This document shows, piece after piece, positions 1,568-52,922 of a stretch of 64,000 bases of DNA. Positions within the stretch are counted from its first letter, which is position 1; each line of letters opens with the position of its first letter. The position numbers and the translations under genes were made by a program. The notes under the pieces were generated by a model, which was not told the origin of the DNA, made no database searches, and saw only the letters and a program-made list of their open reading frames with translations. The DNA comes from Methanomassiliicoccaceae archaeon (GTDB lineage Archaea; Thermoplasmatota; Thermoplasmata; Methanomassiliicoccales; Methanomassiliicoccaceae): positions 64,001 through 128,000 of the forward strand of contig CAVSJV010000004.1 in the NCBI GenBank assembly GCA_963728405.1. The letters are read 5' to 3'.

Positions 1568-4025
1568 ATGAGCAGGCTCATCATCTCAGAGAAGAGCGAC
1601 GCCGCGGCAAGGATAGCTACAATACTGTCCAGGGGCGGCTCCAAGAGGACCAGCGTCAATAAGGTGCCGGTCTTCGAGTTCGAGGATGAGGGCGGACCTG
1701 TTCACGTGGTCGGGCTGAGGGGGCACATCATCGAACTTGACTATCCCCCGGCAATGAACGACTGGAGGGGGGTGAGCCTATCGGATCTTATCAAGGCCGA
1801 GCCAGAGAAGAGGATCACTGCTCATAACATCGTCTCCACTTTGAGAGACCTTTCCAAGGATGTCAACGAGATCATCATCGCCACCGACTTTGACCGTGAA
1901 GGAGAGCTGATCGGCCTGGAGACGGCCCGCCTACTCGACCTTAACGATAAGAAGGTCGGACGGGCCAGGTTCAGCGCGTTCACCCGCCAGGAGATCGATA
2001 CTGCCTTCGGCCAGCTCACCAAGCCGGACGAGGGATTGGCCGATTCGGCGGAATGCCGCCAAAAGATCGATCTGGCCTGGGGTGCGGTGCTCACACGTTT
2101 CATCTCATTGGCCTCGAACCAGGGCGGAAGTAACTTCCTGTCCGTAGGCCGGGTACAGAGTCCCACCCTGGCGCTGGTGGTCGCGAGGCACGAGGCCATC
2201 GAGGAGTTCGTTCCAACGCCCTACTGGAACGTCACCGCCCGCTTCGAGAAGGGCTTAGAGTTCCAGGGTAACCATTCAAAGAACCCCTTCCGGGAAGAGA
2301 CCGAGGCGGCCAAGGCTCTGGCCAACTGCGAGGGATCGGACAAGGGAAGGGTCACCAAGTACGAGCGTACTGAGAAGGATGAGTATCCCCTCCCGCCGTT
2401 CAACACCACCATGATGCTCATGGAGGCCAACAAGCTAGGATTCACCGCGGCCCGAGCGATGAAGATCGCCGAGGACCTTTACACCGCCGGTTACATCTCA
2501 TATCCAAGGACGGACAATACCGTCTATCCGCCCTCCCTGGGGCTGCGGCGCATTCTGGAGAAGCTGCTGGAGTCGGAGGACCTCAAGAAGGACGCCGAAG
2601 AGCTCCTGACCCAGGAGCACATCCGGCCGTCCAGGGGCAAGGTCCAGGCCACTGATCACCCCCCCATCTATCCGACCGAGGCCGCTAACAGTAAGCAGTT
2701 CAAGGGGGAGAAGTGGGCCATCTATGAGCTTGTGGCCCGCCGCTTCATGGCCACTGTGGCCCCTCCGGCCAAGGCCGCGTTATCTAATTCCACCATCGAT
2801 GTCAACGGGGAGGAGTTCGATGCCAGAGGCTACAAGCTCCTCTACCCCGGCTGGAAGAAGTACTATCCTTACTTCCGGGTCAATGAGATCGAGCTGCCCG
2901 AATTGAAGGTGGGCGAGGACAGTCCGCATGCTAGGCGCCGGCTCGGACAAGAAAATGACCCAGCCACCGGGACGCTACTCTCAGGGCAGCTTGATCCAGG
3001 AGATGGAGCGTCTTGCACTAGGGACGAAATCCACCCGGCACGACATCATCCAGAAGCTCTACGACCGCAAGTATGTAGAAGGGAACGATCTCATCCCCAC
3101 GGCCAGCGGTGTTGCCGTGGCCGAGGCGCTGATCAAGCATGCCCAGATCGTCACCGATCCCAAGATGACCGCCCACCTCGAGCAGGACATGGATGATATA
3201 GCCAACGGGAAGAACACCCTGAGCGACGTGGTCGAAGAATCACAGGACATGCTCTCCGATATCCTGGAAACGATGGAGAAGCATCGCAGCCAGATCGGTG
3301 AAGAGATCAGGAAGGCCATCGAATCACAACACTATATCGGAAAGTGCCCTGACTGTGGCTCCGATCTTAAGGTCATCAGGTCCAAGATGGGGAGGCCATT
3401 CGTTGGCTGCTCCAAGTATCCCGATTGCAAGCGCGTCTACCAATACCCGCCCTCGGCGCTGGTCCAGTCTACCGAAGAGATCTGCGAGATGTGCAAGGCG
3501 CCCATGGTGAGGGTGGTCAGGAAGGGGCAAGCGCCCCTGGTGCATTGCCTGGACCCGGGCTGCGAGAGCAACCGGGAACGGATGACCGCTGGCTCCTGCC
3601 CCCACTGCGGGAAGGACCTGCGGATCATCTACTCACGCGCTGGCAAGAGATTCCTGGGCTGCTCCGGGTACCCCGATTGCAAGCAGACCTATCCCCTTCC
3701 CCAGTACGGCAAGTTCGCGCCCACCGGCGATAAGTGTGAGGGATGTGGCGCCCCGGTGTTACAGATCTGGATGAGGGGGCAGACCTGGAAATCCTGCGCC
3801 AACATGGACTGCCCGACCAAGAAGAAGGAAGGGGAGAAGAAGTCCGCTCCCAAGAAGGCGGCGAAGAAAGCTCCGGCCAGGAAGGCAGCCCCGAAGAAGA
3901 CCGGGGCCGAGGAAGAGCCGGCCAAGGCCAAGAAGGCCCCGGCCAAGAAAGTGGCCGTGAAGAAACCCGCGGTCAAGAAGAAAGTGGTTGCAAAGAAGGC
4001 TGCGCCACCCATGGCGGTCGAATAG
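1568..4025 (+). CDS. topA: DNA topoisomerase IA with C-terminal Zn ribbons and Lys/Ala-rich tail; apparent +1 frameshift at 2919-2923
   Basis: TOPRIM motifs (ISEK, ATDFDREGE), SVGRVQSPTL, active-site YISYPRTD, LGTKSTR and CxxC repeats. Deleting the A in GAC(A)GTC joins the two ORFs. Confidence 0.93.
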
Positions 4026-4147
4026 AGCAATGACTGCCATGCAGCCGCCTTCCATCTCTCATTTTAGAACTGAGACAAGGAACTAGGATGCCCCTTTGCC
4101 CGGCCGGTGGGCCCGTCGAGATAAGCTAAGGATCAAGTAAATCGGTC

Positions 4148-4601
4148 TCACCGGCGATCGTGGTCGTCATGATCATGCTCACATTCGTGGTCATGCTCAT
4201 GATCATGGGCCTTTTCCAGATCCTCCACAGTCACATCCGCACCGGCGAACGCCATCTCCCTCAGGGCCAAAGGGTCCACGAGGTCCTGGATCTTCTTGCG
4301 ACTCAGGCCGTAGAGCAGCACAGTTGACGATGACATCCATCTCCTTGATGCCCTCATCCAGCTGGCCCTTGGACATCGGTATGCCGTCATGATTGGTCAC
4401 GCTAACGGCCAGAAATCCATGCCCCGAGGTCTCCACGATGCACTTGATATGGCCGATGAGGTCAGCGCCGGCCTTGAGGCAGCCCATGGTGATCTTGGTC
4501 ATGAGCCCCTCGACCTGGGTCTGGATCTCCGCTGAGGGGACCGGCCTCTCGAAATGCACATCGATCTTCACGGCATAGGCGGCGAAATCGGAAGTGATCA
4601 T
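4148..4601 (-). CDS. Hypothetical CobW-associated protein with His/Asp-rich tail; apparent frameshift at 4320-4324
   Basis: IGHIK motif. Removing 1 nt gives ...DVIVNVLLYGLSRKKIQ...HDHEHDHECEHDHDDHDRR. ATGA overlap with the upstream GTPase. Confidence 0.7.
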
Positions 4602-5198
4602 TGCATCACCATCGCTTCGACCACCTTATCGACAGTTCGTTCCCTCGGTGGCGGAGATGGGGATGATCGGCTTGGACGAGTTGATCTCCCGGAGCGCTCG
4701 CTCGATCCCTTTCAAGGCAGCCTCGTCCACGGTGTCCATCTTATTTATGAGGATGAGGTCGGCGGACTTGACCTGGGCGGCCAGGGGCCGCCCCAGTGCT
4801 TTCAAGATCACCTGGAAGCGAGCAGCGTCGACGACGACCGCCGAGCGTATCGAAGAGAGCTTCTTTCCCGAGTAATGCTCCATGCAAAGCACGATGGCCT
4901 CGGGGTCGGCGACACCGGTCGGTTCGATGACGATAAGGTCGGGGGCGATATTGTTCTCGATATCCACCACAGTCTGCAAGAGGTCCGGCCCCAGGGTGCA
5001 ACAGATACATCCACTGGCCATTTCCTTTACTTGTAGGCCGTACTTGGTCATCACCTTTCCATCGATGCCCACCGTGCCGAAATCGTTGACGATGACCACG
5101 ACCTTTTTTCCGGTCCGCTCAATGATCTTGCTGATGATCGATAGGACCAGAGTGGTCTTACCCGAGCCTAGGAATCCCGCTACGATGAACATGTCCAT
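4598..5198 (-). CDS. CobW/COG0523-type G3E GTPase (GTPase domain only); apparent frameshift at 4632-4636
   Basis: GFLGSGKTT, VNDFG, GCICC, IEPTGVA and NKMD motifs. The corrected end GTNVDKVVEAMVMQ* overlaps the next start. Confidence 0.88.
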
Positions 5199-5350
5199 GA
5201 ACCAACGCCTCGCTTCCCTTCCGATTCAAAATTAGATATATAAAATCAACCGCGGACTTGTGCGAGAATGTAGTTCAGATGATCCGTTCCGACCCTTCTA
5301 TCTCGGGGCCGCCCCATTTGGTCCACCGGAAAATCGATCATTGATGACGA

Positions 5351-51598: not shown

Positions 51599-52041
51599 CC
51601 AGGGTGATGGCTAGCGGGGTCTTCGACATTCTGCACACCGGTCATGTGCACTACCTCAGCGAAGCCAAGAGGTTAGGGGACGAGCTGGTGGTCGTGGTAG
51701 CAACAGATACCACCGTCCGCAAGAACAAACATGAGCCCATCATCCATGAGAAGATGCGCCTGGAGCTGGTCCAAGCGCTCAAGCCGGTCGACCATGCGGT
51801 TCTAGGCCGGGAGGGCGACATGTTCAGCGTGGTCGCCGAGCTCAAGCCGGACATCATCGCCCTGGGCTACGACCAGATGTTCGACGAGAACGCTCTGGAG
51901 AAAGAACTGGACAAGCGAGGCATGAACATCAAGGTAGTTCGCCTGGGCCGCTATGAGGACGACCTCAACGGGACCAGGAAGATCATCCGCCGGATCATCG
52001 ACTGGCATACTGAGGCCAATTGTCCGGAGGCAAAACAATGA
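51595..52041 (+). CDS. ribL: Archaeal FAD synthase
   Basis: [10 protein letters not shown] cytidylyltransferase-type motif and LGYDQ; lies in the rib operon. Confidence 0.88.
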
Positions 52042-52505
52042 AGCTCATCGGCATCGCTGACACCACATTCGCCCGGGTCGACATGGGATCGGCCGCCGTG
52101 GACGAGATCAAGACCATGGGGACGGGATTCAAGATCGTACTGTATACCGTACCAGGGATCAAGGATCTGCCAGTGGCGTGCAAGAAGCTGATCGAGGAGG
52201 ATAAGTGCGACATCGTCATAGCCCTGGGCATGCCTGGCCCCAAGGACAAGGACAAGAACTGCGCCCATGAGGCCTCCACCGGCCTGATCGCCGCGCAGCT
52301 AATGACCAATCACCACATCATCGAGGTGTTCGTCCATGAGGACGAAGCACCCGACGCCAAGACCCTGGATTGGCTTGCCAAGCAGAGAGCCAGGGAGCAT
52401 GCCCGAAACGCCTTTAATCTTCTGTTCCACCCGGGCATCCTGTCCAAGAACGCCGGGAAGGGACTGCGTCAAGGTTACGAGGATGCGGGACCGATAAGAG
52501 AGTGA
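52038..52505 (+). CDS. ribC: Archaeal riboflavin synthase
   Basis: [21 protein letters not shown] and IEVFVHEDE motifs. Confidence 0.93.
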
Positions 52506-52509
52506 GCAT

Positions 52510-52922
52510 ATGAAACGTTACAATATTGGAATAGTGGTATCTGAGTTCAACTTCGACATCACGTCGATGATGCTGGAGCGAGCGAAGGCGCATGCCGCCT
52601 TCCTGGACGTGAACATGTGACCAAGGTCATCTCAGTTCCGGGCGTCTACGACATGCCCCTGGCCATCAAGAAACTGCTCGAGGACAAGGCCATCGACGGC
52701 GTGGTTACCCTGGGATGCGTGATCGAGGGAGAGACAGACCATGACCAGATCGTCATTCAGCACGCCGCCCGCAAGATCATCGACCTCTCGTTGCAATACG
52801 ATAAGCCAGTATCCCTGGGCATCAGCGGTCCCGGCATGACCCGCCTGCAGGCCGAGGAGCGCATCGAGAAGGGGCGCGATGCCCTGGAAGCGGTCGTGAA
52901 GCTCCTTAAGAACCTGGAGTAA
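52510..52922 (+). CDS. ribH: Lumazine synthase; apparent +2 frameshift at 52613-52618
   Basis: [18 protein letters not shown] joins VPGVYDMP...[12 protein letters not shown]...GISGPG when AACATGT is read as AACGT. Confidence 0.92.

Follow-up and report, generated by a model that had tools for sequence, protein, structure and literature searches.

The stretch of DNA analysed here, a window of 64,000 nucleotides (G000:C4:64001-128000), carries a series of genes whose reading frames are interrupted at, or directly beside, copies of the palindrome ACGT that appear to have gained one or two bases. It belongs to the draft genome of a Methanomassiliicoccaceae archaeon (G000; 18 contigs, 2.73 Mb, ~57% G+C, completeness 93.75%), and its Pfam content is archaeal, including an RFC small subunit, a DUF835 response regulator, and TtuA, with MtrA nearby. 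The comparison set comprised ten genomes of the same genus, among which G003 is the closest relative, sharing 98% identity with G000 in RFC and aligning to it at 83-88% at the nucleotide level. A first-pass annotation had listed 13 frame breaks in the window, each repaired by restoring ACGT, and had proposed that the genes are intact and that the breaks mark a host DNA modification. The motifs it named are all present, and the window as a whole contains 122 copies of ACGT, 31 of ACAGT, 32 of ACTGT, and 10 of ACATGT. The frame breaks are also real features of the assembly, as Pfam profiles are split between neighbouring open reading frame (ORF) pieces in different frames in the genes for topA, enolase, a TtuA-like protein, a ROK kinase, GH15, a PEP-utilising enzyme, DeoC aldolase, ribH, and an amino-acid permease.

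In topA, the Pfam profile is matched in two frames (positions 2-306 and 311-410 of 411), and the frame is broken by the extra A at 2921 within a plus-strand ACAGT (2919-2923), where G003 has AC-GT. Aligned with the protein of G008, a relative assembled as one contig, this surplus base (C4:66921 in contig coordinates) falls between residues 468 and 469. Two minus-strand ACAGT motifs follow, one in the C-terminal part of a CobW/HypB/UreG-family GTPase gene (4320-4324; AAC-GTT in G003) and one at 4632-4636, between the ORF with the CobW domain (4629-5225) and the next ORF piece (4206-4625), where both G003 and G004 have GAC-GTT. The enolase gene (eno) is divided twice on the minus strand, with its Enolase_C profile in three pieces: ACAGT at 8208-8212 separates profile positions 2-112 from 129-224, and ACAGT at 7912-7916 separates 129-224 from 232-294, G003 having AC-GT at both sites. 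The Pfam matches of TtuA and ribH both begin only at profile position 23. The TtuA-like gene holds two plus-strand lesions, an ACATGT at 13334-13339 (AC--GG in G003; protein junction at 13331-13340, shift +2) and an ACTGT at 13782-13786 with a +1 shift (GAC-GTC in G003, supported by junction mapping). In ribH, a plus-strand ACATGT at 52613-52618 adds two bases relative to G003 (AAC--GTG) and was recovered by both junction mapping and Pfam. This gene is the second of two DMRL synthase genes arranged head to tail (52014-52919), of which the first gives a weak match (E 4.5e-17) and the second, with the lesion, a stronger one. An additional lesion, missing from the earlier list, is the minus-strand ACATGT at 59771-59776 near the 5' end of ORF 58605-59825, encoding an anticodon-binding domain protein (GAC--GTTT in G003).

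Further lesions lie in a segment of the window that is not collinear with G003. The amino-acid permease gene, whose Pfam match ends at position 341 of 427, contains a minus-strand ACATGT at 17207-17212 with a +2 shift identified from protein junctions: with the orthologues of G009 and G001, the alignment runs over 18253-17210 and then, in another frame, over 17207-17001, which places two surplus bases inside ACATGT. In the P-type ATPase gene, a plus-strand AAACGT (42831-42836) shows the form in which a +1 break abuts an intact ACGT (junction 42829-42833, shift +1). The minus-strand ACAGT at 40018-40022, at the N-terminal end of an MscS-like ORF, is a probable lesion; MscS homology starts at 40017, and support is partial, the piece upstream being too divergent for confirmation. 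A plus-strand AACGT at 26260-26264, at the end of a D-2-hydroxyacid dehydrogenase ORF, is a plausible one, since its extra A creates a TAA stop; G003 is one base shorter here, in an alignment that is only 73% identical.

Most of the 13 proposed repairs were upheld, with 26260 plausible and 40018 supported in part, but the first-pass annotation counted too many: the ACGGT at 31995 and three further breaks that it had called compatible lack support as ACGT lesions. In total, the window contains approximately 11 clean ACGT lesions and two to three adjoining ones, among roughly 25 breaks. At all eight of the originally listed sites that could be aligned, G003 lacks the extra base, having ACGT at seven and ACGG at 13334; with the new site at 59771 included, it has ACGT at eight of nine. 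Across the window, insertions in G000 were found at 8 of 78 aligned G003 ACGT sites vs. indels in G003 at 0 of 70 G000 ACGT sites, while substitutions at these sites (24/78 vs. 14/70) showed no significant asymmetry.

ACGT at frameshift junctions across the genome

A reference-free scan, asking at each base whether its deletion joins two long open frames, was abandoned. Gene junctions and shadow ORFs in this 57% G+C genome gave a background of 1.4-5.4% of all positions, with ACTGT ranking first and then 21st in successive scans and ACAGT 233rd. These scans being too noisy, junctions were mapped by homology. Non-overlapping ORFs of at least 100 amino acids (2143) were taken from 2.4 Mb of the single 2.449-Mb contig of G008 and compared with G000 by tblastn, and a junction was recorded where consecutive matches of one ORF fell in different frames. 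The catalogue covers 1.23 Mb of aligned sequence (45% of G000) and is incomplete, with 8 junctions in the window, where more than 20 breaks are known. A motif was scored if it lay within 9 nucleotides of a junction, and positions shifted by 150-600 nucleotides served as controls. Contigs from the same species were also sought: a scan of metagenome contigs with the N-terminal piece of enolase reached at best 70% amino-acid identity, and a scan of genome contigs returned other species only.

A total of 237 junctions were obtained, skewed towards insertion, with 182 in the +1 class and 55 in the -1/+2 class. ACAGT or ACTGT (together ACWGT, where W is A or T) was present at 61 of the 182 +1 junctions (33.5%) but at only 31 of 1456 controls (2.1%; p = 5.5e-40), an enrichment of about 16-fold. 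ACATGT occurred at 4 of the 55 -1/+2 junctions vs. 2 of 440 controls (p = 0.0017), and intact ACGT was found near 29 of the 182 +1 junctions vs. 105 of 1456 controls (p = 1.7e-4). These counts bear out the expectation of the first-pass annotation that indels, counted per motif genome-wide, would concentrate at ACGT. In the same +1 class, ACCGT and ACGGT (ACSGT, where S is C or G) were not enriched (9/182 vs. 75/1456), nor was any of six other palindromes with an inserted W (1.1-4.4%).

An unbiased ranking of k-mers led to the same motif. ACAGT was the top 5-mer, and AACTGT and ACTGTC were the top 6-mers; once those junctions were removed, ACGT became the top 4-mer (37/169 vs. 99/1352, p = 3e-8), and AAACGT was enriched among the remaining junctions (7/169 vs. 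3/1352). No second motif emerged from the 92 +1 junctions with neither ACWGT nor ACGT, the best leftover k-mers reaching p ~0.002-0.005 over 17-273 tests. GATC and ATCGAT, which appeared frequent by eye, were rejected as a second error motif because they were not enriched (GATC, 43/182 vs. 291/1456). Runs of at least five bases were found at 11 of the 55 -1/+2 junctions vs. 33 of 440 controls, and so characterise a minority class in G000.

The reverse comparison, with G000 ORFs against G008, gave 68 junctions, of which one had ACWGT; among the 40 listed, many lie at C or G runs, the usual homopolymer error of long reads. Several -1 junctions of G008 lie at intact ACGT and are probably G000 insertions viewed from the opposite side.

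For the description of the lesions, the 61 ACWGT cases were oriented so that each reads ACAGT. The extra base lies between the C and the G whichever strand the gene is on, as had been claimed from the window, with 28 lesions in sense and 33 in antisense orientation, and with 32 on the plus and 29 on the minus strand of the contigs. The flanking bases, by contrast, are strongly uneven: ACAGT is preceded by G in 35 cases, C in 18, T in 6, and A in 2, and it is followed by T in 36, C in 18, G in 5, and A in 2. It was also correct that many other ACGT sites are intact; in the aligned regions most are (2866 intact sites vs. 61 lesions), and on this base 3.6-3.8% of C/G-ACGT-T sites carry a lesion, compared with 0-1.3% of those with other flanks. 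A rule that ACATGT would form where both strands are error-prone was dropped, as ACATGT is often preceded by A, contrary to S-ACGT-Y (Y, C or T). Apart from C6 (0/3 junctions) and C18 (0/2), all eight contigs above 40 kb in length carry lesions. Contig C1 (40.6 kb), which has the highest G+C content (0.613), also has the densest junctions among contigs longer than 10 kb, with 16 in 40 kb, equivalent to 70 per 100 kb aligned vs. 13-25 for the other large contigs; two of these are at ACWGT. The coverage or origin of C1 may differ from that of the rest.

Breaks away from ACGT and the non-collinear segment

Roughly half of the frame breaks in the window lie away from ACGT. These include 12780 (a G run), a break in the ROK gene near 27.1 kb, and breaks at 29011, 29113-29118, 29448, and 29702. 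Three further breaks had been proposed as compatible with an ACGT origin. All three are real, yet those at 23313 and 32620 show no ACGT-derived motif, and that at 28683 is a +1 insertion of C located 3 bases beyond an intact plus-strand ACGT (28677-28680; feature 28677-28683), flanked by residues matching positions 42 and 44 of the G003 protein. The gene concerned encodes the PEP-utilising (PPDK/PEP synthase-like) enzyme (28561-31077), which is a single 840-amino-acid ORF in G003 and has at least five frame changes in G000 (28683, 29011, 29113-29118, 29448, and 29702), one of them beside ACGT. Either errors unrelated to ACGT cluster locally here or the gene is a genuine pseudogene.

The plus-strand ACGGT at 31995-31999 also marks a real frame change, although its derivation from ACGT is not supported: G003 lacks ACGT at this position, and across the genome ACSGT shows no enrichment. 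Here, a PfkB kinase and a DeoC/LacD aldolase form one 543-amino-acid ORF in G000 (31034-32662), whereas G003 has them as neighbouring ORFs, each in its own frame; the frame change near 31996 probably produced the fusion. Further along the window, a histidine phosphatase gene (32933-33697) is intact in G000 and divided into two ORFs at a C run in G003 (G003:C3), so the assemblies of the relatives carry errors of their own.

The segment mentioned above (15590-48682, about 33 kb) contains transporters and a sugar-metabolism cluster. The match to G003:C1 ends at 15589 and resumes at 48683, the gap in collinearity amounting to ~33 kb in G000 vs. ~6.8 kb in G003, and part of the segment matches G003:C3; its G+C content is only slightly lower (0.53-0.60). 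The first-pass annotation had argued that this island shares the lesions and is hence a genuine part of the chromosome. The lesions are indeed there, confirmed at 17207 and 42831 and probable, with partial support, at 40018. They fit DNA from the same organism, an argument that holds only if modification is their cause; the position of the island within one contig, between syntenic flanks, is stronger evidence that it comes from that organism.

An Rfam search of the window gave no match. A side observation concerns the RFC small subunit, which in G002:C5:63436-66291, G010:C33:35595-38456, and G011:C17:108119-110561 is matched in two blocks (residues 2-146 and 137-324) that lie ~1.4-1.9 kb apart within one open frame of 796-988 amino acids. 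From sequence, this arrangement looks like an intein insertion, and it is absent from G000, G003, G004, and G008.

Probable cause of the lesions

The comparison with relatives supports well the view that these breaks are a sequencing footprint rather than damage to the genes. A G008 topA query matches a single locus in G000, the broken one; the enolase gene, ribH, and TtuA are affected as well, and of the 1231 G008 ORFs that could be compared with G000, 196 are interrupted there, 36 of them at least twice. Breakage on this scale, and in such genes, makes it almost certain that the ACGT breaks are consensus artefacts, and the proposal that the genes are intact is thus supported indirectly. The involvement of one palindrome and one kind of insertion, the lack of strand preference, and the dependence on flanks likewise argue for an artefact over mutation or recoding.

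Our preferred explanation is that the breaks are long-read consensus errors, probably caused by a native base modification at ACGT unfamiliar to the basecaller or polisher. The native DNA of this archaeon would bear the modification, and a long-read (probably nanopore) basecaller or polisher untrained on it would give the consensus an extra base after the C in a few per cent of the ACGT copies. The site would then read ACAGT (ACTGT on the complementary strand), at times ACATGT with two added bases; in some cases the ACGT would stay intact and the extra base would stand next to it. The strand that shows the extra A would be set by the flanks S-ACGT-Y, as a context-dependent error in signal decoding would give. 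What the comparison shows is the motif specificity, the kind of insertion, its lack in relatives, and the extent of the breakage; the platform, the modification, and the modified base are what we infer from this pattern. Nanopore consensus errors bound to short motifs and arising from modifications for which models were not trained are documented (PMC10687267, PMC11610603).

Two genes of G000 encode candidate ACGT-modifying enzymes, as judged from their sequences. The first, a beta-class N4/N6 methyltransferase gene (PF01555; C3:212968-213829), is split by a frameshift and has only 26-36% identical tblastn matches in G008. The second, a D12-class adenine methyltransferase gene (PF02086; C7:134625-135610), is divided into four or more pieces, contains both ACAGT and ACATGT, and has no tblastn match in G008. 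Both sit at interruptions of G008 synteny. The D12-class gene lies in an 11-kb stretch outside that synteny (G000:C7:130300-141600), with many small ORFs without a Pfam match and a weak Eco57I/Alw26I-like methyltransferase fragment (positions 8154-8492 of the stretch); it may be a mobile or defence island, poorly assembled. The matches to the C5 methyltransferase profile (PF00145) in G000 are two fragments of ~40 amino acids (C15:3838-3966 and C7:63248-63361, profile positions 126-168 of 324), each interrupted by a TGA, and neighbouring ORF pieces add no other methylase motif; the two may be relics or belong to a small repetitive element. DndB (PF14072) had no match in G000. Neither had DndE (PF08870), a negative that proves little because the search matched in no control genome either. 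The search for methyltransferase or dnd genes suggested by the first-pass annotation thus yielded two candidates, but no full-length C5 gene and neither DndB nor DndE. A tentative and, on balance, doubtful extension is that the modification is something other than the common 5-methylcytosine (m5C): the PF01555 enzyme may place N4-methylcytosine at ACGT, the D12-class enzyme may place N6-methyladenine there, or the modification may be a larger, so far undescribed one, in each case disturbing the long-read signal so strongly that an added base is called instead of a wrong one. If so, insertion-type lesions in a metagenome-assembled genome would be a read-free marker of such modifications.

Several findings weigh against consensus errors caused by modification. 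Only ~2% of the aligned ACGT sites are affected, and at 80 of the 182 +1 junctions ACWGT, ACGT, and runs of at least five bases are all missing, so that other error sources exist in the G000 assembly too. The C5 methyltransferase expected from other ACGT systems was not found at full length in this genome, 93.75% complete, and comparisons of the PF01555 and PF02086 enzymes with NCBIfam and PDB gave only generic beta-class and Dam-family similarity, which leaves their specificity unassigned. ACGT is only mildly scarce relative to G008, a suggestive sign at most: the observed/expected ratio is 0.91, fourth lowest of the 16 four-base palindromes, vs. 1.18 (5763 sites in 2.73 Mb vs. 9288 in 2.4 Mb), and the density is 2.1 vs. 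3.9 per kb. The artefact status itself draws on comparison with a different species and on the implausibility of so many broken genes. Finally, the nanopore errors linked to modifications in published cases are mainly mismatches, not insertions (PMC10687267, PMC11610603).

Much of this would also suit an explanation in which the S-ACGT-Y context itself produces the errors, through a quirk of the basecaller, assembler, or polisher or through low coverage, with no base modification involved. The strong flank dependence, the small fraction of sites hit, the lack of an assignable cognate methyltransferase, the many non-ACGT frameshifts in the same assembly, and an insertion signature unusual for modifications, as far as those reports describe it (PMC10687267, PMC11610603), are all in its favour. 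However, the one-contig G008 has ACWGT at only 1 of 68 junctions, although it is a weak control, and a lone four-base palindrome standing out among all k-mers resembles the target of a methyltransferase. ACGT is, moreover, an ordinary context on which basecallers are well trained. We therefore regard the context alone as an unlikely cause.

Real mutation, in which the lineage would gain frameshifts at ACGT by site-specific mutagenesis (nuclease misrepair or excision footprints) and the genes would be pseudogenes, is very improbable. The deposited sequence does contain the insertions, and ACGT is rarer in G000 than in G008, as given above. However, this reading would require the loss of the single locus matched by topA, an enolase in three pieces, and damage to ribH, TtuA, and the other interrupted ORFs, all by one motif and one insertion type. 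On either side of each break, the coding sequence remains conserved (70-90% identity to relatives, 50-100% protein identity to G008) and so shows no decay. If an A^CGT cut were repaired by fill-in, the product should be ACGCGT, which is not the form observed. A third rival, in which genuine insertions are overcome by recoding, through programmed frameshifting or transcript slippage, is hardly credible, as nothing except the recurrence of one motif speaks for it, the orthologues of G003, G004, G008, G009, and G001 lack the extra base, +1 and +2 forms both occur, and the equal presence of lesions in sense and antisense orientation leaves no common mRNA signal.

Under the preferred explanation of modification-linked consensus errors, about one comparable gene in six is falsely broken in the G000 draft. 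Such breaks lower the completeness estimate, which is 93.75% vs. 96-99% for seven of the ten relatives, and annotation would gain spurious pseudogenes, split genes, and one false fusion, that of PfkB and aldolase. The lesions are nevertheless recognisable and can be corrected by rule. For this uncultured Methanomassiliicoccaceae methanogen, the pattern suggests DNA modification directed at ACGT, with two candidate enzymes, and counting k-mers at junctions against one relative recovers a probable modification motif from the assembly alone.

Comparison with known systems

Modification of ACGT is known from other organisms. M.MaeII of Methanococcus aeolicus (PMC10113651) and M.Hpy99XI of Helicobacter pylori (PMC10423294) are described as methylating ACGT as m5C. 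They share with the present case the same native four-base palindrome, and one of them comes from an archaeal methanogen; both, however, produce m5C, in contrast to G000, where a full-length C5 gene was not found.

As for the errors, the closest parallel is that of Listeria, in which nanopore errors at GCAGC and GCTGG are, as in G000, recurrent, bound to one short motif, and lineage-specific (PMC10687267). Their cause was tied to a methyltransferase-encoding system missing from clean genomes, and Modpolish corrects them by means of close relatives (PMC10687267). The Listeria errors are reported as mismatches, 1533-5670 per genome, with indels posing no problem (PMC10687267), whereas those of G000 are insertions of one to two bases at ACGT. 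In strand-specific errors of R10.4.1 data, the strand is set by the motif context, which the orientation of the extra A following the flanks in G000 fits; those errors are C-to-T and G-to-A substitutions, in contrast to the insertions of G000, and the main text of that report does not mention ACGT (PMC11610603). The homopolymer indels of long-read assemblies also break reading frames, but the G000 lesions consist instead of a base unlike its neighbours placed in a non-repetitive palindrome. The ACGT lesions add one more case to a known class of artefact, their insertion signature being uncommon.

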